From Escherichia coli (GTDB lineage Bacteria; Pseudomonadota; Gammaproteobacteria; Enterobacterales; Enterobacteriaceae), in the NCBI RefSeq assembly GCF_003991155.1, contig NZ_CP031293.1: a stretch of DNA of 64,000 bases; one strand, written 5' to 3'. The position numbers and the translations under genes were made by a program. Each line of letters opens with the position of its first letter. Within the stretch, counting starts at the first letter, position 1. This document shows positions 1,489-18,094 of the stretch, piece by piece. The notes under the pieces are model-generated. The model did no database searches and was not told the DNA's origin. It worked only from the letters and a program-made list of their open reading frames with translations.

Positions 1489-2883
1489 TTAGCGAAGCCA
1501 GTTTTTCCGGCCTACGGCTACTCCCCGTAAGGCGTTCTCTGCGATGTTGTTGTCGATTTCCACCCAGCCATTGCTGCAGTACACGTTCAGGCCATCCCAC
1601 TGTTTCAGCAGGTATGCGAACGCTTTTGCCGTATCTGAGTGACGCGACAGTGTTTTCATCTGTTGCTGTATCCAGTCATACAGTGACTGCATCAGTGGCG
1701 CGGCTCTGGCTTTTCTTGCCGCCAGACGCTGTTCTGCTGAACAGCCCCGGACCTCTGCCTCGATGGCATACAGTTCACCGATACGCTGCAGGGCTTCCGT
1801 GGTGATGTAGGTGGGCGCTCTTGCATGCACATCGTGGATTTTTCTCCGGGCATGAGCCATACACGCGGCTTCCGTTATTCTGCCGGATTCGTATAACGCC
1901 CGGTAACCACCGTAAGCATCGGCCTGAAGCACACCGCTGTAACCGGCCAGGTGATTTTGTGGATGGATACCTTTCCGGTCCGGACTGTACGCGAACCAGA
2001 CCGCCGGGGGCATCTGTGAACCGGCGTTACGGTCATCACGGACGTAGACCCACAGCCGGGCTGTCCGGGTTTTACCGCTGCCCGGCTCCTGGACCGGGAC
2101 GGGGATATCATCAGCATGGACTTTACCGGGCATCAGCACATACTGGCGCAGGACGTCATACAGCGGCTCCAGCAGTTCAGCAACAGCACCTGTCCAGCGC
2201 CCCAGTGTGGCACGGCTCAGCTCCACTCCCTGACGACGGTATATTTCTGACTGGCGGTATAACGGCAGATGGTCTGCATATTTCCCGGTGACAACATGGG
2301 CCAGAAGCCCCGCTCCGGCATAACTGCGTGCAATGGGTTTTGAAGGTACTGGTGCCTGCACGATATGGTCGCACCGGCAACAGGCCTGTTTCGGACGTTG
2401 TGTTTCGATAACCTTAAAGGCGCTGCTGATAAGCTCCAGTTGCTCTGACACATCACATCCCAGAGAACTGAGTTCACCACCACAGGCAGGACAGCATTCC
2501 TCTTCCGGCCGGATAACCCGGGTTTCACGGGGAAGTGAGGCCGGTAACGGTTTACGGGCTGAAGACTGGCGCAGGGCGGATGGCAGTACCGGGTCATATT
2601 GCTCACCCAGCGTTTCCGCCATTTCTTCCTGAAGTGCGCTGATTCGCTCCTGTGCTTCCTGTATCTGCCGTTCGGTTTTTGCACGAAGTTTTTCTGAGCT
2701 TTTACCGAACTGCATACGTTGCAGTTTCGCAACCAGCGCCTTCAGCCGGTTGATTTCGGAAGCATAAGCCGCCACCCGCTGTGAGAGCAGGCGGTTGTAT
2801 TCAGCCATCTGGCGGATGGTGTCCTGTTGCGTCTGCAACAGTGCCCGCAGGCGGGCGTTCTCATGAGCAAGTGAGGTGTCCAT
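1489..2883 (-). CDS. IS66-family transposase TnpC (orfC), C-terminus apparently disrupted
   Basis: 464-aa ORF with zinc-finger-like CxxC pairs and DDE-region conservation; ends at KNWLR where family members continue; a 90-aa ORF (1216..1488) lies immediately downstream in the same orientation. Confidence 0.75.
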
Positions 2884-2902
2884 ATCCTCACTTTACAACG
2901 GG

Positions 2903-3250
2903 TTATATGCGGATTCCAGCGCGTTCCGTTCGTTTCGGGTGCTTCCAGTTGATACCTTCAAGAAGCATGGATAACTGAGCCGGAGTAAGGTGCACCTTGC
3001 CGTCACGGGTGACTGGCCAGACGAAGCGGCCCCGCTCCAGGCGTTTGGTGAAGAGGCACAGTCCGTCACTGTCAGCCCACAACACTTTTATCTGGTCACC
3101 CCGGCGTCCGCGGAAGATGAACAGGTGTCCGGAGAACGGGTCATCCTTCAGGACGTTCTGAACTTTTGATGCCAGGCCGTTAAAGCCATTTCGCATATCG
3201 GTGATACCTGCAACCAGCCAGATACGCGAACCTGCAGGGAGAGATATCAT
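2903..3250 (-). CDS. IS66-family TnpB (orfB)
   Basis: 115-aa ORF MISLPAGSRIWLVAGITDMRNGFNGLA..., the characteristic IS66 Orf2 N-terminus. Confidence 0.8.
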   Translation of the reverse strand: MISLPAGSRIWLVAGITDMRNGFNGLASKVQNVLKDDPFSGHLFIFRGRRGDQIKVLWADSDGLCLFTKRLERGRFVWPVTRDGKVHLTPAQLSMLLEGINWKHPKRTERAGIRI

Positions 3251-3927
3251 CAGTGGCTGCTCCCTTTTATTTCGCGGATAAGTGTCTGTAATAACGCCGG
3301 CGTCAGTTTACCTTTAAGCCTGAGAGTTCCGGCCGGCAGAACCAGCTCACAACACAGACTGTCGGACGGTGTATTTATCTGCTCTGGTTCCTGTGCGGGG
3401 GCCGGGATTTTATTATCCGGCTCCGGCGTTAACGTCACGGGAAGCAGTGCCGGCATATTTTTTCCGGAAGGCAGCAGGCCACCTTTCCGGTATTGATGGC
3501 GCCAGTTGAAGAGCAGGTTATCGTTGATTCCGTTTTCCCGGGCGATCTGCGCCACACAGGCTCCGGGCTGCAGTGACTGCTCCACTAAGGCGATTTTAAA
3601 CTCATAAGGGAAGTTGGGCCGCCGGGGACGTTTTTTTACCACGGGGGCTTCGGATATAACGGTGCTTTCAGGACGTACGACTGGTACCGTGGAAAATTGT
3701 CCGTAAAGGCAGGCATCAAGTTCCTGCTCCGACATGCCTGCGGGCAAAGGCCACGAAAGGCCAGCTCTCCGAAAGCGCACGAACATACTACAAACTGTTG
3801 ATTTTGGTACACCCAGGCGACGCCCGGCCACAACCCGGGGTAAATGTTCTTCAAAGTGAAGACGTAAAGCTTCAGTGATCCAGGTCCGGTGTTTCATACG
3901 ATAGTGTCCATTAAAAATGATGGACAT
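3250..3927 (-). CDS. chimeric ORF: IS21-family IstA-like N-terminus (HTH + LSWPLPAGMSEQELDACLY) fused to IS66-family TnpA (orfA)
   Basis: C-terminal ~130 aa (PNFPYEFKIALVEQSLQPGACVAQIARENGINDNLLFNWR) is IS66 TnpA-like; N-terminal ~95 aa resembles IS21 IstA N-termini. Confidence 0.55.
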   Translation of the reverse strand: MSIIFNGHYRMKHRTWITEALRLHFEEHLPRVVAGRRLGVPKSTVCSMFVRFRRAGLSWPLPAGMSEQELDACLYGQFSTVPVVRPESTVISEAPVVKKRPRRPNFPYEFKIALVEQSLQPGACVAQIARENGINDNLLFNWRHQYRKGGLLPSGKNMPALLPVTLTPEPDNKIPAPAQEPEQINTPSDSLCCELVLPAGTLRLKGKLTPALLQTLIREIKGSSH

Positions 3928-4180: not shown

Positions 4181-4836
4181 TACTTATTTGGTGGACACCA
4201 CTTTGTCTAATTCGTCAGATTCTGACCAGACGGTTCAGGCTGTACGCTTACGTAGAACGCAGGTTCGTTTCGGTTCAGGATCGCGACAGTGCCCCCTCAC
4301 CTTCAGCTACAGTTCCCATAGAATTTTTTTCAGGTCAGTAATACTGGCTGCTGTTGTTGTCAGGATTTGATAGCTCATAAGCCCCGTTTGTCTTATTGGT
4401 ATAAGAGCATCTTTAAAAGCACTCTTAAAAGTACTCGTGTTGAAAAAACAGCCAGAACAAATGAAGTATGGCTCTTTCCGACAACTCTCTAAAACGTTCT
4501 GTAACACATTCTGAGCGTTTTTACGTCAGTTAGGCACGCCGCTCAGTGCTTCTGAGCGGCCTTGTTGCCGCGATCTGTTGTCCTGATCTTGATAAATGAA
4601 CATCAATACGGCGTTCCGTCAGTGTTTACAATAACTCCCAATTCATAACTACTTTTAACACATTTGTGTGATTCCCCCTTTCTGCTGAAAATATAGTTAT
4701 TTCCAATATAATCAATGAGTTTTATTAATTTGTTGATTTTTTTTTTCATGTTTTTTTTGTGATAATTATCATTTGAATGTGAATGTTGCTCCTGAATAAT
4801 GTTTATCAAAGTTGTCTGGTACGAGGGAGAAATTTC

Positions 4837-6099
4837 ATGGCTATCATCATGGGGATCATCGCTGACGATTTTACTGGCGCGACTGATATTGCCTGCTTTA
4901 TGGCAGAGAATGGTTTTCGGGTTGCGCTGTTGCCCGGTTTGCATGCACTCACGCAGTCATGGGATGAAGAGGCTGATGCAATAGTCATTTCACTGAAAAG
5001 TCGTTCATTACCCGCGAATCAGGCAATTGAGCAGACTTTGCTAAGTTATCATTGGTTGCGTGACTGTGCGGGGGCGCAGCAGATCTATTTCAAATATTGC
5101 TCAACATTTGATTCCACTGCAGATGGCAATATCGGCCCGGTCAGCGATGCACTGATGAAGGTGATGGGCACACCTTATGTCGTGCATTGTCCCGCTTTGC
5201 CCCAAAATGGCCGAACAGTTATCCATGGACATCTTTTTGTTAACGGTATACCCCTTAACGAATCCGGCATGGAAAAACACCCCCTGAATCCAATGACCGA
5301 CACTAACCTGCTGCGCGTACTGGCTGCACAAACCCCCAATAGAGTTGGTAATCTTGATCTGAGGACAGTTCAACAGGGCGAGCAAGCCATCACCACCGCA
5401 CTTTCCCGTTGTCAGGCTGAAGGGAAGCAACACATTATTGTCGATACATTAACTGAAAATGATCTGCAAAGCCTGGCAAATGTATTACGCCATACACCTT
5501 TACTGGCTGGGGGATCCGGACTGGGTGGGGCGTTAGCCGCTTTTTTACAGCAACATCCTTATACGCCAGCCTCCGCGTTTCCCAATCCTGCCAGAACGGT
5601 AATCTTCTCCGGAAGTTGTTCAGTGATGAGTAATCGACAGGTGGATGCTTATAAATCGCATGCAGCCACGCAGTTGCTTGATGTTGCTCGTTGTCTGGAC
5701 GATGGCAATAGATATATCGATCAATTACTTGAATGGACAATTGCGCACATCAATGATCCGCTTGCTCCGTTGATTTACGCCACTCAACCTGCGGATGTGT
5801 TGAAATCTATACAGCAAACCTGGGGTGAACACGCGGCAAGTAAAGCCATTGAACAAACTTTTGCGCAGCTTAGCCAAAAATTGCAGGTCGCGGGTGTCAA
5901 CACTTTTATTGTTGCTGGGGGAGAAACTTCCGGGACTGTAGTGGAAGCGCTAAATGTGAAACGGCTAACAGTGGGGAGCACTATTACGCCGGGCGTACCA
6001 TGGGTTTTTTCGGCAGAACCGCCCCTGGCACTGGCGCTGAAATCTGGCAATTTTGGGGAGCCTGATTTTTTCATTAAGGCTCAGGAGCATGGATTATGA
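4837..6099 (+). CDS. four-carbon acid-sugar kinase family protein (DUF1537; OtnK/YgbK-like 3-oxo-tetronate kinase homolog)
   Basis: N-terminal IADDFTGATD motif and overall length (420 aa) typical of DUF1537 kinases; RBS GAGGGAG upstream; stop overlaps next start. Confidence 0.75.
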   Translation: MAIIMGIIADDFTGATDIACFMAENGFRVALLPGLHALTQSWDEEADAIVISLKSRSLPANQAIEQTLLSYHWLRDCAGAQQIYFKYCSTFDSTADGNIGPVSDALMKVMGTPYVVHCPALPQNGRTVIHGHLFVNGIPLNESGMEKHPLNPMTDTNLLRVLAAQTPNRVGNLDLRTVQQGEQAITTALSRCQAEGKQHIIVDTLTENDLQSLANVLRHTPLLAGGSGLGGALAAFLQQHPYTPASAFPNPARTVIFSGSCSVMSNRQVDAYKSHAATQLLDVARCLDDGNRYIDQLLEWTIAHINDPLAPLIYATQPADVLKSIQQTWGEHAASKAIEQTFAQLSQKLQVAGVNTFIVAGGETSGTVVEALNVKRLTVGSTITPGVPWVFSAEPPLALALKSGNFGEPDFFIKAQEHGL

Positions 6100-6734
6100 G
6101 TGAACTCATCGAACAAAAATTACGTGAACAACTCGTCTATTACGGGCGTTCGCTCTTTATGCGCGGTTTCAGTAGTGGCGGTTCCGGCAATATCAGCGTC
6201 AAACTGGCTGAAGACCGTTTTTTGGTCACGCCGACCAATTCCTGTCTTGGCGAGTTAGATAGTGAAAGAGTGAGTCTTATCGATATTCATGGCAACCATA
6301 TCAGTGGTGATAAGCCGTCAAAAGAGGTGCCTATGCATCTTGCCTGGTATCGACATCGTCCGAACTGTGGAGCGGTGGTACATCTGCACTCGCCATGGCT
6401 GACGGCACTTTCGTGTTTACCTTGCACAACACCAGAGAATTGCTTACCGCCGCTCACTCCCTATTACGTGATGCGTGTGGGGAAATTACCATTATTGCCT
6501 TATTTCAAACCAGGACATGAGGATATCGCTACGGCATTAAGCCATATAGCGGCCGACTCTACCGCAGCTCTGTTGGCGAATCATGGCCCCGTTGTCAGCG
6601 GAAGAACATTGCGCGAAGCGGTATTTAATGCCGAAGAGCTGGAAGACAGTGCCCGTATCTGGCTGACCTTAAAACCACTTGGCTATGTTCCTCTTTCGGC
6701 AAAAGACATCGCTGAACTGGAACAGGCCAGATGA
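6096..6734 (+). CDS. class II aldolase/adducin-family protein (OtnC/YgbL-like decarboxylase/aldolase)
   Basis: 212 aa, SGGSGNISVK and HLHSPW metal-binding-type motifs; ATGA overlap with upstream kinase gene. Confidence 0.75.
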   Translation: MSELIEQKLREQLVYYGRSLFMRGFSSGGSGNISVKLAEDRFLVTPTNSCLGELDSERVSLIDIHGNHISGDKPSKEVPMHLAWYRHRPNCGAVVHLHSPWLTALSCLPCTTPENCLPPLTPYYVMRVGKLPLLPYFKPGHEDIATALSHIAADSTAALLANHGPVVSGRTLREAVFNAEELEDSARIWLTLKPLGYVPLSAKDIAELEQAR

Positions 6735-6749
6735 TAACGAGGTGAGAGG

Positions 6750-7556
6750 ATGATACCCGAGCAAAGGCGAGACTTTATTTACCGCTATGTCCATGAGAAA
6801 AACGTTGCTTCATTTAATGAACTGGCTGAGTTGATGAGCGTTTCGCATATGACAGTGCGTCGTGATATTCAATTACTGGAAGAAGAAGGCAAAGTTATTA
6901 CCATAAATGGCGGCGTTAAGCTGAACAACCAACTTAAATTGGAGTTACCGTGGCGAGAAAAAGCTGAACTGCATCATGATATTAAGCGTGACATGGGGCA
7001 GCTTGCTGCGATGTTGATCGAACCCGGGCAGACACTCTATTTAGATGCCGGAACCTCATTATTTGAGGTCGCAAAAGCAATCGTTGCCAGCCAGTGCTTT
7101 AATCTCACTATCGTGACAAATGATTTCTCTATCAGCCATTACCTGATGGATATGCAACATATCACGCTTTACCACACCGGGGGATTGGTAGATCAACGCA
7201 ATCGTTCTTGTTTGGGGAAAAGTGCAGCTGATTTTCTGCGCACGATTAATATCGATGTTGCATTTCTTAGCTCCTCTTCATGGGATACACAAAGAGGAAT
7301 GTCAACACCAAATGAAGGTAAAGCTACAGTGAAAGAGGCGGCGCTTACGGTCTCCCGTCGCCGCGTATTAGTGTGTGATAGCAGTAAATTCGGTAAATAC
7401 GGAATGTTCCATATATGCGAGCTCAGCCAATTGACCGATATCATTTCAGATAACCAGTTGCCTTTATCGGCGCAGGAAAGCATTACACAGCTGGGCGTGA
7501 AATTACATCTGGTTAATAGCCGGGAGGGAACGCAGCATGTTGAAGCTGGCGGCTAA
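6750..7556 (+). CDS. DeoR-family transcriptional regulator
   Basis: N-terminal HTH (FNELAELMSVSHMTVRRDIQLLEEEGKV) and C-terminal sugar-phosphate-binding-like domain. Confidence 0.8.
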   Translation: MIPEQRRDFIYRYVHEKNVASFNELAELMSVSHMTVRRDIQLLEEEGKVITINGGVKLNNQLKLELPWREKAELHHDIKRDMGQLAAMLIEPGQTLYLDAGTSLFEVAKAIVASQCFNLTIVTNDFSISHYLMDMQHITLYHTGGLVDQRNRSCLGKSAADFLRTINIDVAFLSSSSWDTQRGMSTPNEGKATVKEAALTVSRRRVLVCDSSKFGKYGMFHICELSQLTDIISDNQLPLSAQESITQLGVKLHLVNSREGTQHVEAGG

Positions 7557-8313
7557 TCTCGACTGGTTGTTCACAGAACTGCCGATGTCTGCACGGTTTC
7601 ATGCAGCCAGACGGGAGGGGTTTCGTGCTGTTGAAGGAATGTTTTTCTGTCAGCATTCTCTGGATATGCTGAGAATTGCGCAGCAAGAATCGGGAATGAG
7701 CGTGGTGCTGATGAATGCTCCGGCAGGTGACTGGCTACGAGGTGAGCGTGGCCTGGCTGCACTTCCTGGCCGCGATGATGAATACCTGAACAGTTTGCTC
7801 ATTGCCCGCCGATATGCAGGGACGCTGGGATGCAGGCAGGTTCATGTTATGGCGGGCCTTCGGGATCACTCTGTGACAGAAGATGAACAACTGGAGTTAC
7901 TGGTTAATCGCTTGTGCATAGCCTGCGATGTGCTGGCGGAAAAAGATATTACAGTATTAATCGAACCCCTGAATTCTGAAGATATGCCTGGCTATATTAT
8001 TAATAGCCTTCCTCGAGCAAAAGATATTATCCGGCGGGTTTCTCACCAAAATATTGGTTTGCAGTTTGATATTTATCATTGCCAGAAAATTCATGGTAAT
8101 GTCACCCAAAATATAGATAAATATTTATCAATAGTTAAGCATTTTCAGATTGCCTCTGTGCCTGGTCGCCACGAACCAGGTTCTGGTGAGCTAAATGATA
8201 CGTGGATATTAAATTTTATTAATCAAAAAAACTTCCAGGGCTGGATTGGCTGTGAGTATAAACCTTCCACACTGACAACCGAGTCATTACGCTGGATGAA
8301 ACCATATTTATAA
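7537..8313 (+). CDS. Hyi/OtnI-like TIM-barrel isomerase (hydroxypyruvate / 2-oxo-tetronate isomerase family)
   Basis: 258 aa; strong similarity to E. coli Hyi as recalled (AGDW..GERG, LIEPLN, GW(I/V)GCEYKP, LRWM.PY). Confidence 0.8.
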   Translation: MLKLAANLDWLFTELPMSARFHAARREGFRAVEGMFFCQHSLDMLRIAQQESGMSVVLMNAPAGDWLRGERGLAALPGRDDEYLNSLLIARRYAGTLGCRQVHVMAGLRDHSVTEDEQLELLVNRLCIACDVLAEKDITVLIEPLNSEDMPGYIINSLPRAKDIIRRVSHQNIGLQFDIYHCQKIHGNVTQNIDKYLSIVKHFQIASVPGRHEPGSGELNDTWILNFINQKNFQGWIGCEYKPSTLTTESLRWMKPYL

Positions 8314-8334
8314 AATCTTTTTCTGGAGGAAAAT

Positions 8335-9147
8335 ATGTCGGATACCGTCATAATTTCGTTGGCACCTGTGGCCGCAGACTGCACCAGAGTCATACCCGAA
8401 GAATTGGCGCAGGAAATTTTGGCTTGCGTTGAATATGGAGCAGCAATTGTTCATTTACACGTTCGTGATAAGCAAGGCAAGTTAACGCCAGATACAACCG
8501 ATTTCCAGTCAACCATTGATCTCGTCAGACATCAATCAGACTTAATTATTCAGGCTTCTACGGGCGGAGTCTCTGCCATGTCAATAGCCGAGCGTTGCGC
8601 GCCTCTGGACTGCCCTGGCGTTGAAATGGCGTCGCTGAATGTAGGGTCGGTGAACCTTGGTGATGCCGTCTACGCTAATCCAACACCGGATGTCGAATAT
8701 TGTTCACAGCAAATTACCGCGCGTAGTATTGTTCCTGAATTTGAAGTGTTTGAAATTGGAATGGTTAATAATATTTTAACCCTCAATGAAAAGATAAAAT
8801 TCAGAAACCCCATGTTATTTAATATTGTACTTGGTCATAGAGGAAGTTCTCCGGCGACAATAGATGCATTAATTGCGATGCGCAGTATGATCCCGCGAGA
8901 TGCATTATGGGGTATTACTCACTTTGGCAGAAAGAATTTTGATGTTATTGCTGCTGCGGTAGCTATGGGAGCTAGCGAGGTCAGAATTGGTTTTGAAGAT
9001 AGTTATTATTTAAGTGCAGAGGAGATGGCGGAACAAAATTATCAGCAAGTTAAAAAACTCGCCAGACTTATTCGTAGTATGGATAAACAAGTGGCCTCAC
9101 CGGAAATTGCCCGACGGATATTAAATATCCCAATCCGGCAGCAATGA
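8335..9147 (+). CDS. DUF849 / BKACE-family beta-keto acid cleavage enzyme
   Basis: 270 aa with HLHVRD motif characteristic of 3-keto-5-aminohexanoate cleavage enzyme family; good RBS (GGAGGAAAA). Confidence 0.7.
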   Translation: MSDTVIISLAPVAADCTRVIPEELAQEILACVEYGAAIVHLHVRDKQGKLTPDTTDFQSTIDLVRHQSDLIIQASTGGVSAMSIAERCAPLDCPGVEMASLNVGSVNLGDAVYANPTPDVEYCSQQITARSIVPEFEVFEIGMVNNILTLNEKIKFRNPMLFNIVLGHRGSSPATIDALIAMRSMIPRDALWGITHFGRKNFDVIAAAVAMGASEVRIGFEDSYYLSAEEMAEQNYQQVKKLARLIRSMDKQVASPEIARRILNIPIRQQ

Positions 9148-9168
9148 CGACAGACAGGACATTTTACT

Positions 9169-10479
9169 ATGACTATAACAACCCTAATACAAAAAGCAGG
9201 ACTTACAATCTGTATAGCTGGCGGTGTACTCGCGGCAACAGGCGGGTTGATGCAATCCGCTGTGCTCTGGCAACCTGGATTGGTGATGCTTACTGCAGGC
9301 TTTGCCCTCGGTGCTGGTTACTGGCCGATACTTCGAAGTTATCAATTCACGTTATGGATTATCGCAGGTTTCGTGGCTGCGATGACCTGGTCGATGGATT
9401 TGATTGTCTGGGGCGGGTTTAACATTACTCACAAATGGATCGTGTTTTTAGTCATTCAGGCAACGATGTTCAGTATGGGTACCAAACTGACGATTCAGGA
9501 TTTTATCGATGTTGCCAAAATGCCATGGGCGGTGTTTATTGGCACCTTCTGCCACTTTGTGATTATGCCGTTGCTGGGGCTAACCATTACGCTGTTATTT
9601 GATTTTCCGCCAGAAGTTGCGGTGGGGATCCTGCTCATAGGTGCCTGCCCTAGCGGTTTATCATCAACTGTTATGGTTTATATCGCTAACGCGAACCTCG
9701 CGCTGGCGGTATCAATCGCCGCAGTTTCTACGCTGGCAGCAACGGTTATGACGCCGTTGTGGGTAAATTTGCTGGCTGGCTCCATGATTGACATCCAACT
9801 TACCGCAATGGTTATGGACGTGGTGAAAATTGTCCTTATACCAATTGGTGCAGCAATTTTGCATGACTACCTGAAAACGTACGCTGGAGTTCGAGGTCGA
9901 CGAACCGTGCAGCTTCTCGCCGGGATCTGCGCCCTGTGGCTAATTTACATGAGCTCTGGTGGTTGGGACTATCTCTTTGACAACGCCAGTGCAGACGTAC
10001 AAATGTATGCCGTGGTACTGAACTTTGTCACGGGTGGCATTGTATGGGCGTTGTTCTATAACTGGCTGTACAGTCGCGTGGAAGGCATTCAAAAGATTAT
10101 GCCAACCATCTCTATGATTGGGATCATCTTCTTTACCACCACCGCTGCGGCAGCTGGTCGTGATAACCTGTTGCAGGTTGGTTTCCTGCTTTGTTTCGCC
10201 ATGTTGTTGCATAACCTTGGCGGTTTCCTGATTGGCTATCTGATGAGTCGCTGGATATTCCGCATGGACGAACAATCGTCCCGTACCGTAGCCTTTGAAG
10301 TGGGATTGCAAAACGGAGGTATGGCGTCAGGTCTGGCAGCGGCAATGGGCAAACTGGCTACAGTTGGCCTTGCCTCTGCAGTCATGACACCTCTCGGCAA
10401 TGTGAGTGGTTCGCTGTTGGCAAACTACTGGCGCAAAAAAGACGCTCGTAAAGCACAGACTGCGAATAAAGACAAATAG
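9169..10479 (+). CDS. BASS-family (bile acid:sodium symporter / SBF-like) transporter with N-terminal extension
   Basis: Highly hydrophobic 436-aa ORF, GACPSGLSSTVMVYIANANLALAVS signature region; start codon uncertain. Confidence 0.65.
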   Translation: MTITTLIQKAGLTICIAGGVLAATGGLMQSAVLWQPGLVMLTAGFALGAGYWPILRSYQFTLWIIAGFVAAMTWSMDLIVWGGFNITHKWIVFLVIQATMFSMGTKLTIQDFIDVAKMPWAVFIGTFCHFVIMPLLGLTITLLFDFPPEVAVGILLIGACPSGLSSTVMVYIANANLALAVSIAAVSTLAATVMTPLWVNLLAGSMIDIQLTAMVMDVVKIVLIPIGAAILHDYLKTYAGVRGRRTVQLLAGICALWLIYMSSGGWDYLFDNASADVQMYAVVLNFVTGGIVWALFYNWLYSRVEGIQKIMPTISMIGIIFFTTTAAAAGRDNLLQVGFLLCFAMLLHNLGGFLIGYLMSRWIFRMDEQSSRTVAFEVGLQNGGMASGLAAAMGKLATVGLASAVMTPLGNVSGSLLANYWRKKDARKAQTANKDK

Positions 10480-10514
10480 TCTGCCTGTTGTAACCTTTCA
10501 AAAGGAAACTCAAT

Positions 10515-10934
10515 ATGACGACATTGACCCTGAAACAAGCATTGCTTGCAGTAGAGTATGCGCTTGATCTTGCAGTGCAACAATATGCTGGCCGTCCTTT
10601 AAGTGTGGCAGTATGCGATGTTAATGGTGAATTGCTGAGCTTTGCCCGCATGGATAGAGCCAAACTGTTAACTATTGAATTAACGCAGCGTAAAGCACGA
10701 ACCAGTAGTCGTCTGGGCTGTACGACAGCAGCATTCTTACAGCGTCTACAAAAAGAGCAACTTGATATCAGCTATTTTGGAGATCCCCGGTTTACCGCAT
10801 TACCAGGAGGGATCCCTATTCTGGTTAAAGGAAAATGCATTGGTGCTGTTGCTGTGGGGGGATTATCCGCACGAGAAGATCATGATGCGGCACAGGCTGT
10901 CGCAGATAAACTGCTTGAGGAGATGACCAAATGA
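10515..10934 (+). CDS. GlcG/DUF336 (HbpS-like) protein
   Basis: 139 aa, typical DUF336 length and GAVAVGG glycine-rich motif. Confidence 0.6.
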   Translation: MTTLTLKQALLAVEYALDLAVQQYAGRPLSVAVCDVNGELLSFARMDRAKLLTIELTQRKARTSSRLGCTTAAFLQRLQKEQLDISYFGDPRFTALPGGIPILVKGKCIGAVAVGGLSAREDHDAAQAVADKLLEEMTK

Positions 10935-11581
10935 AAAAAATAGCCATGCTTCACACCAGTTCAGCCACGCTTGCGGTGATGCAACAACTGATAGGCGATA
11001 TCATGCCTGAGGCTGAAGTGATGCATCTGGTTGAGGAGTCTATGATTAAGCAGGTGATGAAAGCGGGCGGTGTTACGCCAGATATCGCCGCACGGATCGC
11101 TGATTACATACGGATCGCTGAAAAAGCCGACTGCGATATTTTCATTACCGCTTGTTCATCAATTGGTACTGCTGTCGAACAGTGTCAATTTATGACTTCA
11201 GTACAACTGGCACGGATTGACTGTGCGATGGTGGATGAAGCAATCAACAAAGGGGAACACATTGCTGTGCTGGCAACGGTGGCCACAACGCTGAAACCGA
11301 CGCTTGATTTTGTCCGGCGAAAAGTTCAGGAAAGTGGAAAACAGCGGATTATTACACCTGTTTTAATGGAAGAAGCCTTCCATGCGTTATTGAATGGTGA
11401 TATGGGAACGCATGACCGCATTGTGAGTGAAGGATTACAAAAGGCCTTTGGGCAGGCAGATGTTATTATGTTAGCGCAGGCATCGATGGCACGGGTGCTG
11501 CAAAATATGCCTGAGCCTCCGGTTCCGGTATTAACATCGCCAGAAAGCGGTATTCGCTGGTTGAAAACATTCGCGAGTTAA
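10931..11581 (+). CDS. AroM-like / Asp-Glu-hydantoin racemase superfamily protein
   Basis: 216 aa; architecture resembles E. coli AroM as recalled; ATGA overlap with upstream gene; family assignment tentative. Confidence 0.45.
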   Translation: MKKIAMLHTSSATLAVMQQLIGDIMPEAEVMHLVEESMIKQVMKAGGVTPDIAARIADYIRIAEKADCDIFITACSSIGTAVEQCQFMTSVQLARIDCAMVDEAINKGEHIAVLATVATTLKPTLDFVRRKVQESGKQRIITPVLMEEAFHALLNGDMGTHDRIVSEGLQKAFGQADVIMLAQASMARVLQNMPEPPVPVLTSPESGIRWLKTFAS

Positions 11582-11684: not shown

Positions 11685-11716
11685 AAATGGCAGAAGGTAA
11701 CTACTTTCTGCCATTT
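11685..11716 (+). terminator. perfect 11-bp inverted repeat (AAATGGCAGAA / TTCTGCCATTT, 10-nt loop) ~105 nt downstream of the operon
   Basis: Seen directly; no clear T-tract follows, so terminator function is uncertain. Confidence 0.35.
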
Positions 11717-13219: not shown

Positions 13220-13903
13220 TTATGAATTTTCTTTTATCCTGCTATTTTGGGGTTTATTGTGAAAGTAACTTTCAAGAACAGGCAGATAGTACCAGGATTC
13301 AGGATGTTTTTTCAGGAATTCATTTAAAAATGATTGCATTGTTAAATATAAATCTTTGTTATTTCCTTTATGTATAAAATCATAAATCCACACGTAATTA
13401 CTGTAATTAGAATCAAAGTATGATGCAATAAAATACGCATTAGCACCTGCGCGTCTTACAATATATTCCCAACCACCGTGCAACCATGCTTTCTTATTCA
13501 GTAGACAAGCTTCTCTTACAGAACCATAGTTTTCGCTACTATACACTGAGGGTATATCTGGTAATATAATCAAATTAGCTCCGTTTTTTACAAGCTTAAT
13601 CATGGCCTTTATTTCTGTAATGCCATTTTTTTCGAAAACAGTAATCTGATGCCCAAGTCCAGAAAGTGAATGTATTAATTCCAACTCATTGAGACCATTT
13701 ACAGAACTTCTATAAAAAATAAAATGTGAGTTAGATTTATATGAAAGTAGAATTTTATGAATGGCTGTCCAGTATTCACCAGAATGTAAAACTACAAACA
13801 CAGAATTATTAAGTGTTTTATGTAATGCATCCAAAAAACAGTCTTCATATATAAATTTTGTACGGTGTGCATACTCATGAAGGGTATTCATAGACACAAT
13901 CAT
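13220..13903 (-). CDS. hypothetical AT-rich protein with LpxL/LpxM-like (lipid A late acyltransferase family) features, lacking the usual N-terminal region
   Basis: 227 aa; H-S-G-E-Y-W and ILPDIP motifs resemble HxGxWE and LPDQD motifs of LpxL-family enzymes; markedly AT-rich. Confidence 0.35.
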   Translation of the reverse strand: MIVSMNTLHEYAHRTKFIYEDCFLDALHKTLNNSVFVVLHSGEYWTAIHKILLSYKSNSHFIFYRSSVNGLNELELIHSLSGLGHQITVFEKNGITEIKAMIKLVKNGANLIILPDIPSVYSSENYGSVREACLLNKKAWLHGGWEYIVRRAGANAYFIASYFDSNYSNYVWIYDFIHKGNNKDLYLTMQSFLNEFLKKHPESWYYLPVLESYFHNKPQNSRIKENS

Positions 13904-16522: not shown

Positions 16523-17704
16523 TCAGATCTGCTCAGAAAGTGAATCAATGTAGTCAGCATACCACTGCATCATTTCACGGCGACCATCCAGATACTGGGC
16601 ATGATTATAGGTACCTCTGATAGCGTTTTTATCCATATGAGCTAACTGCATTTCAATCCAGGCAGAATTAAAGCCCTGTTCGTGCAGAATTGTACTCATG
16701 GTGTGTCTGAAACCGTGCCCTGTGAGTCTTCCCTTATATCCTAGTAATTCAATGACTTGGTTTATGCTTTCCTTACTAATTGGTTTGCGAGGATCGTTCC
16801 TACCGATAAAGACCAGAGGATGATGTTTTGAGATTGGTTCAAGTTGCTTAAATAGCGCAATGACCTGCTCAGAGAGCGGCACAATATGAGGTCGCTTCAT
16901 CTTCATTACTTCTGCCGGGATCTCCCATAATTTTGTCTCAAAATCGATATCCTCCCAGCGTGCGAAACGCAATTCTTGAGTTCGTACACCAGTTAGCATA
17001 ATGATTTGAGTGGCTGTCTTAGTGATAATACTTCCGGTATAACCCGCCAGATCATTGAGGAAGTGGGGAAGTTCATTAGCAGTAAGAAAGGGAAAATGTA
17101 CTTTTTTCGGTGTAGCTAAAGCACTGGCAAGATCGGGAGCAGGGTTGTAGTTAGCCCGACCAGTAACAATTGCATAGCGGAACACCTCTCCACAGCGCTG
17201 GCGGACCTTACGCATTTTCTCCAGAGCTCCACGTTTTTCCATTTTACGCAATGCTTCCAGTAACTCCATTGGTTTGATTTCAGCAATAGGGCGTTTGCCA
17301 ATATAGGGAAAAATATCTTTTTCAAAGGTATCAATGATTTCATCACGATAGCGTAATGACCACCGATCGGCTTTTGACTGATGCCATTCTCGAGCAACGG
17401 CCTCAAATGTGTTTTTCAAACTCATTTGCAGCGCGATTTTTTCTTCTTTTTTTGTCTCACCCGGATCGCATCCTGCAGCGAGGATTTTCCTAGCTTCACT
17501 GCGTTTTTCGCGAGCGTCGGCTAGAGTTACATCGGGGTATACGCCAATAGAAAGCATCTTTTCTTTGCCAGCAAAGCGGTACTTCATACGCCAATATTTA
17601 GAACCATTAGTGTTAATGAGTAGATACATACCGCCACCATCAGACAGCTTATAGGGCTTTTCTTTTGGTTTTGCGGTTTTCACTTTAATATCAGTTAACG
17701 CCAT
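16523..17704 (-). CDS. P4-type (CP4-like) tyrosine integrase
   Basis: 393 aa, C-terminal HGFRHT...Y catalytic signature; lies beside the 3' end of selC in the same orientation. Confidence 0.85.
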   Translation of the reverse strand: MALTDIKVKTAKPKEKPYKLSDGGGMYLLINTNGSKYWRMKYRFAGKEKMLSIGVYPDVTLADAREKRSEARKILAAGCDPGETKKEEKIALQMSLKNTFEAVAREWHQSKADRWSLRYRDEIIDTFEKDIFPYIGKRPIAEIKPMELLEALRKMEKRGALEKMRKVRQRCGEVFRYAIVTGRANYNPAPDLASALATPKKVHFPFLTANELPHFLNDLAGYTGSIITKTATQIIMLTGVRTQELRFARWEDIDFETKLWEIPAEVMKMKRPHIVPLSEQVIALFKQLEPISKHHPLVFIGRNDPRKPISKESINQVIELLGYKGRLTGHGFRHTMSTILHEQGFNSAWIEMQLAHMDKNAIRGTYNHAQYLDGRREMMQWYADYIDSLSEQI

Positions 17705-17999: not shown

Positions 18000-18094
18000 T
18001 GGCGGAAGATCACAGGAGTCGAACCTGCCCGGGACCGCTGGCGGCCCCAACTGGATTTGAAGTCCAGCCGCCTCACCGGAGACGACGATCTTCC
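18000..18094 (-). tRNA. selC: tRNA-Sec (selenocysteine)
   Basis: Reverse complement reads GGAAGATCGTCGTCTCCGGTGAGGCGGCTGGACTTCAAATCCAGTTGGGGCCGCCAGCGGTCCCGGGCAGGTTCGACTCCTGTGATCTTCCGCCA (95 nt, CCA end), matching E. coli selC as recalled. Confidence 0.9.

Follow-up and report, generated by a model that had tools for sequence, protein, structure and literature searches.

Two described pathways lie closest to the gene set analyzed here. Work by Zhang et al. in 2016 reportedly established the L-threonate/D-erythronate pathway, comprising LtnD or DenD, OtnI, OtnK, and OtnC (ygbJKLM in E. coli), and work by Carter et al. in 2018 is said to have established the D-apionate pathway, with the kinase OiaK and the RuBisCO-like proteins (RLPs) OiaC and OiaX. 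In this study, a 64,000-nucleotide stretch of Escherichia coli DNA (contig NZ_CP031293.1 of assembly GCF_003991155.1; hereafter the window) was analyzed, which carries an eight-gene plus-strand operon (4783-11581) whose last two genes encode a GlcG/DUF336 protein (GlcG-like protein) and a protein of the Asp/Glu racemase superfamily (racemase-like protein). We propose, with a probability of roughly 40% for the full mechanism, that the operon serves the catabolism of an imported branched-chain acid sugar, most likely L-aceric acid, and that the racemase-like protein acts as a one-base isomerase.

The first gene of the operon (4783-6099, with a RefSeq start at about 4837) encodes the 3-oxo-tetronate kinase OtnK of the DUF1537 family, with the Pfam domains SBD_N and NBD_C and an NCBIfam OxoTetrKin score of 510 bits against a cut-off of 350. 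The second (6096-6734) encodes the 3-oxo-tetronate 4-phosphate decarboxylase OtnC of the class II aldolase fold (NCBIfam OxoTetrPhDc, 289 bits against a cut-off of 250). These are followed by genes for a DeoR/YgbI-like regulator (6750-7556; Pfam HTH_DeoR and DeoRC; NCBIfam YgbI, 261 bits, under the cut-off of 400), an OtnI-like isomerase of the hydroxypyruvate isomerase family (7537-8313; NCBIfam OxoTetrIsom, 282 bits, under 325; OH-pyruv-isom, 275 bits, under 353), a BKACE/DUF849 enzyme (8335-9147; Pfam BKACE, 234 bits; NCBIfam Kce, 243 bits, under 382), and a BASS-family transporter predicted to import an acid sugar (9169-10479; Pfam SBF).

In comparison with the L-threonate/D-erythronate pathway, the operon has OtnK and OtnC equivalogs, an OtnI-like isomerase that scores under the equivalog cut-off, and a YgbI-like regulator. 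In contrast, it has no GntP transporter, and neither the Pfam and NCBIfam scans nor the RefSeq annotation revealed a tetronate dehydrogenase (LtnD or DenD) among its eight genes; BKACE, BASS (or, in relatives, TRAP), GlcG-like, and racemase-like proteins are present instead. These comparisons indicate that the operon does not contain the complete Otn pathway.

The terminal genes are translationally coupled

The GlcG-like gene (10515-10934) encodes 139 residues with no signal peptide evident, and the racemase-like gene (10931-11581) encodes 216 residues. The start codon of the racemase-like gene (ATG, 10931-10933) overlaps the stop codon of the GlcG-like gene (TGA, 10932-10934) in an ATGA (10931-10934), an arrangement of translational coupling, and a GAGGAG Shine-Dalgarno-like hexamer for the racemase-like gene lies within the GlcG-like gene (10917-10922). 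The original prediction, made from the letters of the window, had placed a pair coupled in this way at the 3' end of the operon, as the sequence confirms.

The GlcG-like protein matches Pfam PF03928 with 108.4 bits against a cut-off of 25 (E 3e-31), its residues 4-130 covering positions 1-127 of the 128-position profile, in agreement with its initial assignment to GlcG/DUF336. The racemase-like protein matches PF01177 (Asp_Glu_race) with 60.3 bits against a cut-off of 31. RefSeq labels the two products "GlcG/HbpS family heme-binding protein" and "aspartate/glutamate racemase family protein". A word-indexed search returned 743 homologous proteins at E ≤ 1e-5, the racemase-like family comprises 2317 cluster representatives at E ≤ 1e-3, and racemase-like relatives are present in at least 575 species genomes. 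Because the Pfam matches lie well above their cut-offs, RefSeq annotates both genes, and homologues are numerous, both open reading frames (ORFs) are real genes and not chance ORFs. Both families are poorly characterized, as had been pointed out, and neither ORF was assigned to an unrelated, well-characterized family in the profile searches.

The 4-nt overlap is kept only in Enterobacteriaceae (Klebsiella, Citrobacter, Raoultella, and Trabulsiella). In Yersinia, Gilliamella, Brenneria, and Propionivibrio, the pair is adjacent, with gaps of 4-37 nt instead of the overlap. Gilliamella carries a second gene of the Asp_Glu_race family (locus L086, 12181-12873), some 2 kb past its operon on the downstream side.

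The racemase-like protein has one catalytic cysteine

The racemase-like protein had been called AroM-like and had been placed in the Asp/Glu racemase fold. No match to AroM (PF07302) was obtained in Pfam even at E ≤ 10, so that AroM membership was rejected; the family is PF01177. No NCBIfam model matched the protein, and a single-sequence search of the PDB yielded noise only (gephyrin, E 0.66). The fold assignment held: the AlphaFold (AF2) model, with a pLDDT confidence score of 95.3, matched the Asp racemase 3S81 in Foldseek with a TM score of 0.78 and an E of 1e-8, and Asp/Glu racemases were matched at TM scores of 0.75-0.78 with 13-18% identity.

For the alignment to solved racemases, a profile from a 72-sequence alignment reaching down to 29% identity was used, in which C75 and Q183 are invariant. 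C75 aligned with the first catalytic Cys of glutamate, hydantoin, and allantoin racemases (2EQ5, 1B73, and 3QVJ), and Q183 aligned with the second catalytic Cys (LAQASMA, compared with LGCGGMA of 5LFD and 3QVJ). Among 263 sequences, Cys was found at position 75 in 261 and Gln at position 183 in 260, and H8, T9, R55, D97, T116, H161, S185, and S203 were also highly conserved. These results indicate that the racemase-like protein is a member of the superfamily that lacks the two-thiol feature of its racemases, and that it defines a large one-Cys subfamily with a Cys/Gln signature.

The conserved Cys pair, proposed earlier as a check on the assignment, is absent. Since the first Cys alone is kept and an invariant Gln occupies the second site, a two-thiol racemase is unlikely, and the canonical two-Cys racemase was rejected for the replacement of its second catalytic Cys by Q183. 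Maleate cis-trans isomerase uses a Cys pair, as nucleophile and acid/base; membership in that family was rejected, as only a single Cys is conserved here. A single base would suit suprafacial proton transfer, as in an isomerase or tautomerase, better than racemization. On balance, the racemase-like protein is probably a non-racemase one-base enzyme that acts between the transport and the phosphorylation or cleavage of a 3-oxo acid sugar.

The single-thiol site could also be read as that of an arylmalonate-decarboxylase-like enzyme acting on a gem-dicarboxylate sugar acid, in which Cys75 would protonate the enediolate. Two arylmalonate decarboxylase structures, 2VLB and 3DTV, rank 38th and 42nd in the structural search, and the engineered G74C/C188S variant of that enzyme reportedly keeps activity with the thiol on the first-position side. 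In the natural enzyme, however, the sole thiol is Cys188, which occupies the second position, and the first is a Gly, so that the Cys position here is the opposite one, and membership in that family was rejected because the Cys/Gln pattern is reversed (Cys first, Gln second). Moreover, every gene context already has a decarboxylase, OtnC or an RLP, and the neighboring genes suggest no natural gem-dicarboxylate sugar. We consider this explanation improbable.

The racemase-like gene is linked to a transporter and a 3-oxo-acid kinase

Gene neighborhoods were compared in a close set of 15 species loci, with racemase-like relatives at 58-93% identity, and in a distant set of 65 species loci, whose racemase-like relatives are 36-43% identical. 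The close set includes loci from Klebsiella, Citrobacter, Raoultella, Trabulsiella, Edaphovirga, Budvicia, Propionivibrio, soil metagenome-assembled genomes (MAGs), and the termite-gut Adiutrix. All 15 close loci have BKACE; OtnK, OtnC, and OtnI are found in 11, GlcG in 11, and BASS in 9; most of the remaining loci have TRAP. TRAP takes the place of BASS in Brenneria, Propionivibrio, and a soil MAG.

The distant loci belong to Bacteroidota, Verrucomicrobiota, Planctomycetota, Chloroflexota, and Actinomycetota. A DUF1537 kinase lies beside the racemase-like gene in 52 of the 65, an RLP is present in 45 and BASS in 44, whereas BKACE and GlcG are found in none (0/65). The usual order of the resulting four-gene cassette is RLP, DUF1537 kinase, racemase-like, and BASS (loci L021-L085; for example, L025, 7283-12074, and L034, 7255-12134), and 38 loci, from Bacteroidota, Verrucomicrobiota, Planctomycetota, and Chloroflexota, have the full set of three partners close to the racemase-like gene. 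With the NCBIfam models of the D-apionate pathway (NF042436 and NF042437), the cassette kinase is OiaK-like (421-513 bits) and the RLP is OiaX-like (496-500 bits), both under the equivalog cut-off of 700. These results indicate that the racemase-like gene is tied to a transporter and a 3-oxo-acid kinase, and not to BKACE.

No redox enzyme is present in the conserved cassette, and therefore the leftover cassette enzyme, the racemase-like protein, would have to make the 3-oxo substrate of the kinase from an isomer. Because 52 of the 65 BKACE-free loci pair the gene with a kinase and a transporter, its product is placed upstream of phosphorylation and not after cleavage; the same linkage disagrees with the suggestion in the original prediction that the gene pair processes a cleavage product.

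These linkages also bear on the possibility that the racemase-like protein is a true epimerase, a racemase, or a keto-enol tautomerase whose substrate would be 2- or 3-oxo-tetronate or some similar 3-oxo acid. Cys75 would work with a non-thiol second base (His8, His161, or Asp97), and the enzyme would funnel the wrong stereoisomer into the stereospecific steps of OtnK and OtnC. The protein has the racemase fold and retains the first catalytic Cys as well as the Ser/Thr motifs for carboxylate binding, the conserved His and Asp residues could serve as the second base, the C2-H of 3-oxo-tetronate is doubly activated, and OtnK and OtnC are in the operon. However, a pure epimerase would leave the RLP/OiaK-like pathway incomplete, since no other enzyme there makes a 3-oxo acid, and a substrate of the aceric or isoapionate type has a quaternary carbon alpha to its carboxylate, which cannot epimerize. 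Symmetric two-base chemistry is likewise disfavored by the invariant Gln that replaces the second thiol. This explanation, which is in essence the earlier idea that the pair sets stereochemistry, we regard as unlikely, preferring a one-base isomerase.

A third cluster type, consisting of LacI, TRAP DctP and DctQM, a VOC/Glyoxalase_4 protein, an OiaX-like RLP, and an OiaK-like DUF1537 kinase, was found in Paraburkholderia (L089, 9001-15286) and Bosea (L090, 9001-15225). The VOC/Glyoxalase_4 protein, of 179-184 residues and without an NCBIfam model, holds the place of the racemase-like protein in these clusters, which suggests non-orthologous displacement of an isomerase.

In three Caballeronia/Burkholderia loci (L044, L052, and L059), racemase-like relatives of about 40% identity lie in a different cluster, with genes for MFS, zinc alcohol dehydrogenase, aldehyde dehydrogenase, MmgE/PrpD, cupin, HpcH/HpaI aldolase, 2-hydroxyacid dehydrogenase, and LysR proteins, and with an OtnK-like kinase 5 kb away. 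This different context in Burkholderiaceae suggests that the racemase-like subfamily may act on more than one substrate.

Hydrolases and transporters point to a rhamnogalacturonan-II sugar

L-Aceric acid is 3-C-carboxy-5-deoxy-L-xylose, a component of rhamnogalacturonan-II (RG-II) with no primary hydroxyl. A GH127 gene is found close to the cassette in 19 of the distant loci, usually as the next gene upstream on the same strand, and the cassette GH127 scores 812 bits to PDB 5MQO, compared with 388 bits for the next GH127 structure. We take 5MQO to be BT1003, the aceric-acid-releasing hydrolase. The genes flanking the cassette encode GH78-like, GH106, GH141, GH2, SASA esterase, DUF5703, and SusC/D-like proteins, and together with GH127 they presumably match the set of RG-II side-chain-B enzymes. 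BT1003 (GH127) is an aceric acid hydrolase that frees L-aceric acid from AceA-Rha-Api (PMC10850190; RG-II preprint), and "secreted L-AceAf" is mentioned for cultures of Bacteroides thetaiotaomicron on RG-II (RG-II preprint). No other sugar of that chain is anionic, and aceric acid would for this reason fit a BASS or TRAP importer.

The window proteins are related to these cassettes through the racemase-like protein, which is 41% identical, and BASS, which is 45% identical, to their Flavobacterium cassette counterparts. In addition, the TRAP binding protein of close relatives of the window operon has 52% identity and 392 bits to PDB 4OAN (Rhodopseudomonas palustris RPB_2686), and these binding proteins are 58-59% identical to those of the TRAP/VOC/RLP/DUF1537 clusters of Paraburkholderia and Bosea. 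The DctP family comprises 7674 proteins at E ≤ 1e-60, with 4OAN as the solved member, and the predicted model of the TRAP binding protein is poor (pLDDT 67). The density in 4OAN was reportedly modeled as (S)-2-acetolactate, a beta-keto acid that has the same skeleton and a tertiary alpha-hydroxy group. Because two unrelated transporter families, BASS and TRAP, link them, the BKACE-type operon is tied to the RLP-type clusters. No RG-II hydrolase and no other glycoside hydrolase was found near the enterobacterial operons, and the substrate is therefore assigned by way of relatives that are 41-45% identical and of the homology between transporters.

Two other candidates were set aside. The substrates 2-carboxyarabinitol (hamamelonate) and apionate do not suit conserved cassettes that have no redox enzyme, and the deoxyribonate pathway of Klebsiella is unrelated to the window operon.

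The operon may instead degrade another acid, such as a product of ascorbate or diketogulonate or another 3-oxo sugar acid, with the terminal pair in ancillary steps and with a canonical BKACE that uses acetyl-CoA to give acetoacetate and an acyl-CoA. The BKACEs characterized so far are all acetyl-CoA dependent (Price et al. preprint), and the Kce active-site motifs are kept in the window BKACE, whose HxH (HLH) and GFED metal motifs align with those of Kce (2Y7D). L-Threonate, the classical Otn substrate, derives from ascorbate, and the enterobacterial operons, as noted, lie apart from RG-II hydrolases. However, none of the 15 close loci has a CoA-transferase, thiolase, or acyl-CoA-handling gene, the operon has no dehydrogenase to make the oxo acid from threonate or erythronate, and the transporter homology links it to the RLP cassettes. 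This explanation appears quite unlikely to us, and L-aceric acid is preferred as the substrate.

The GlcG-like protein accompanies BKACE and precedes the racemase-like gene

The nearest PDB chains to the GlcG-like protein are those of NahX (9JTH), 4NKP, and EfgA (6BWS). The ligand site of EfgA includes K57, S114, and D121, and EfgA binds formaldehyde but not acetaldehyde (PMC8153426). In the alignment, K57 and D121 are kept as K60 and D122, whereas S114 corresponds to G115. Formaldehyde sensing of the EfgA type is unsupported, as S114 is not kept and EfgA has no acetaldehyde binding. DUF336 genes in general are recurrently linked to aldehyde-forming pathways (PMC8153426).

All of the close homologues of the GlcG-like protein that were examined lie in the BKACE/racemase-like gene set, and homologues of at least 56% identity in Gilliamella, Brenneria, and Yersinia are found in the same set. 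In every case examined, the racemase-like gene comes immediately after GlcG, even where BKACE has shifted its place, the order being GlcG, racemase-like, and BKACE in Brenneria and BKACE, GlcG, and racemase-like in Propionivibrio. These results indicate that the presence of the GlcG-like protein follows BKACE, and its position follows the racemase-like gene. Since it is absent from 4 of the 15 close loci and from all RLP-type cassettes, it is not a core catalyst. Its most likely role, which we suggest with low confidence from these sequence comparisons, would be that of an accessory binder of a reactive carbonyl or a partner of a neighboring enzyme.

Alternatively, the GlcG-like protein might be a heme- or corrinoid-binding sensor that is merely co-transcribed and stands apart from the pathway chemistry. 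The family name and the RefSeq label "heme-binding protein" favor such a role, as does heme or cobalamin binding by HbpS and PduO (PMC8153426). However, the heme-binding label of the GlcG-like protein is a family name only, Pfam detected no heme or B12 enzyme in the operon, and the close homologues examined all share one gene set, directly 5' of the racemase-like gene. In the window, the GlcG-like gene is also translationally coupled to it. A sensor of this kind is highly improbable, and the accessory role is preferred.

A proposed pathway for L-aceric acid

From the gene identities, the one-Cys signature, and the gene linkages observed above, we infer a route in which the substrate, as well as every reaction of the racemase-like, BKACE, and GlcG-like proteins, is putative. 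The BASS transporter would first import the sugar-acid anion. Cys75 of the racemase-like protein, as a one-base catalyst, would then shift a proton by way of a C1-C2 enediol to convert the aldose into the 3-oxo acid HOCH2-CO-C(OH)(COO-)-CH(OH)CH3. This acid would be 3-oxo-isoapionate with CH(OH)CH3 in place of CH2OH, and may suit the OiaK-like kinase and the OiaX-like RLP of the distant cassettes.

In the window operon, BKACE would hold the beta-keto acid on its metal and catalyze a retro-aldol reaction that releases the 1-hydroxyethyl branch as acetaldehyde and leaves 2- or 3-oxo-tetronate. As OtnK and OtnC pass their equivalog cut-offs, the side chain would have to be removed before phosphorylation, for which BKACE is the sole candidate. 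The fold relatives of BKACE include cis-epoxysuccinate hydrolase (5ZMU), a CoA-independent precedent within the DUF849 fold. The OtnI-like isomerase may then set the 3-oxo tautomer of the resulting oxo-tetronate, and OtnK and OtnC would yield dihydroxyacetone phosphate (DHAP) and CO2. The GlcG-like protein might serve the BKACE branch as an accessory that binds or buffers the aldehyde or the labile beta-keto acid, or that assists its neighbor. The three cluster types would represent permutations of phosphorylation, decarboxylation, and C-C cleavage.

Several points weigh against this pathway. The putative substrate is that of relatives at 41-45% identity. To our knowledge, an aldose-ketose isomerase has no precedent in the Asp/Glu racemase fold, whose members usually remove the proton at the carbon alpha to a carboxylate or amide carbonyl; the sugar isomerases that use a thiol base (RpiB/LacAB) have another fold. 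Every BKACE characterized so far depends on acetyl-CoA, and the window BKACE retains the metal site and catalytic motifs of Kce, so that a canonical reaction is also conceivable. The OtnI-like protein could itself be the aldose-ketose isomerase of the operon. In addition, 4 of the 15 close loci have no GlcG, the Burkholderiaceae relatives of the racemase-like gene lie in a different gene context, and EfgA, with Ser114 where the GlcG-like protein has Gly, does not bind acetaldehyde.

The broader proposal that the window operon, the RLP cassette of Bacteroidota, and the TRAP/VOC clusters of soil Proteobacteria are the first catabolic pathways for L-aceric acid, with three new enzyme functions, is tentative, and we think it more doubtful than the pathway itself. 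The three functions would be a one-Cys aldose-ketose isomerase, a CoA-independent BKACE retro-aldolase that yields acetaldehyde, and a DUF336 protein for a reactive carbonyl. On this proposal, enterobacteria (among them rare E. coli, the Klebsiella oxytoca group, Citrobacter, and Gilliamella) would cross-feed on aceric acid secreted by pectin-degrading Bacteroides.

If the pathway is correct, it would provide a testable gene set for the breakdown of aceric acid and account for what becomes of a sugar acid secreted by B. thetaiotaomicron in the gut. A large racemase-like subfamily would gain a function, with its Cys/Gln signature showing how a two-base scaffold becomes a one-base enzyme, and BKACE chemistry would extend past acetyl-CoA-dependent Claisen reactions. 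The long-standing orphan family DUF336/GlcG would gain a defined genetic partner, and the OiaK-like kinases and OiaX-like RLPs of these clusters would gain candidate functions.

Operon boundary and genomic island

Downstream of the operon, RefSeq annotates only mobile-element debris and minus-strand ORFs, and the terminator scan found nothing directly after the last stop codon of the operon. A 14-bp perfect hairpin on the plus strand (11685-11716), a possible terminator with no T-run, lies 104 nt past this stop codon and was missed by the scan; its folding free energy is -18.8 kcal/mol (z -5.6), and 0 of 200 shuffles were equally stable.

The operon lies within a mosaic island at the tRNA-Sec gene (selC; 18000-18094, minus strand). 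The island elements, which were located at 1489-3927 and 16523-17704 (both minus strand) in addition to the tRNA gene, comprise a tyrosine integrase, remnants of IS66 TnpA, TnpB, and transposase, RepA and TnpB fragments, and a frameshifted SDR gene. A 227-residue ORF (13220-13903, minus strand), a hypothetical protein in RefSeq, is also found in the island downstream of the operon. The operon island is carried by 21 of 5426 complete E. coli genomes, in all cases at 99% identity or more.

Comparison with known systems

The racemase-like protein shares with the Asp, Glu, hydantoin, and allantoin racemases (MurI and HpxA/AllR; 3S81, 3QVJ, and 5LFD) a two-domain fold, with TM scores of 0.66-0.78, an equivalent C-S-S motif at the first Cys, and equivalent Thr/Ser-rich substrate-binding loops. 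It differs from them in its low identity (13-18%) and in the invariant Gln that replaces the second Cys, and its genes lie with sugar-acid kinases and transporters, whereas the known racemases belong to amino-acid or purine metabolism. With arylmalonate decarboxylase (2VLB and 3DTV) it shares the superfamily and a single catalytic thiol, which is at the first position, on the opposite side of the active site, and its context offers no malonate-type substrate.

The GlcG-like protein has a full-length DUF336 domain in common with EfgA (6BWS), NahX (9JTH), GlcG, HbpS, and the C-terminal domain of PduO, and it keeps the Lys and Asp of the EfgA ligand site but not its Ser114, which is Gly. Like GlcG, NahX, and PduO, it is encoded in a catabolic operon. 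In contrast to the known DUF336 proteins, to which it is about 25-30% identical, it represents a dedicated clade found only with BKACE and the racemase-like protein.

The window BKACE shares with Kce (2Y7D) the DUF849 TIM barrel and the metal site of HxH and GFED, whereas it scores 243 bits (under 382), has no CoA-handling neighbors, and would have, from its sequence and context, a CoA-independent retro-aldol role. For the D-apionate pathway, the likeness lies in the OiaK-like and OiaX-like proteins of the distant cassettes and in a proposed 3-oxo acid that is one methyl group off 3-oxo-isoapionate. In contrast, the scores of 304-513 bits fall under the cut-off of 700, and no apionate oxidoisomerase is present, its place being held by a racemase-fold or VOC-fold protein.

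The release of aceric acid from RG-II has been well studied, but no route for its breakdown is known to us. In the searchable literature, which did not include several key papers, neither this gene set nor the catabolism of aceric acid was found described; the L-threonate 3-dehydrogenase paper, the NetSyn preprint, and the BEN2908 genome paper likewise had nothing pertinent. Overall, these comparisons suggest that the operon probably belongs to an undescribed pathway.

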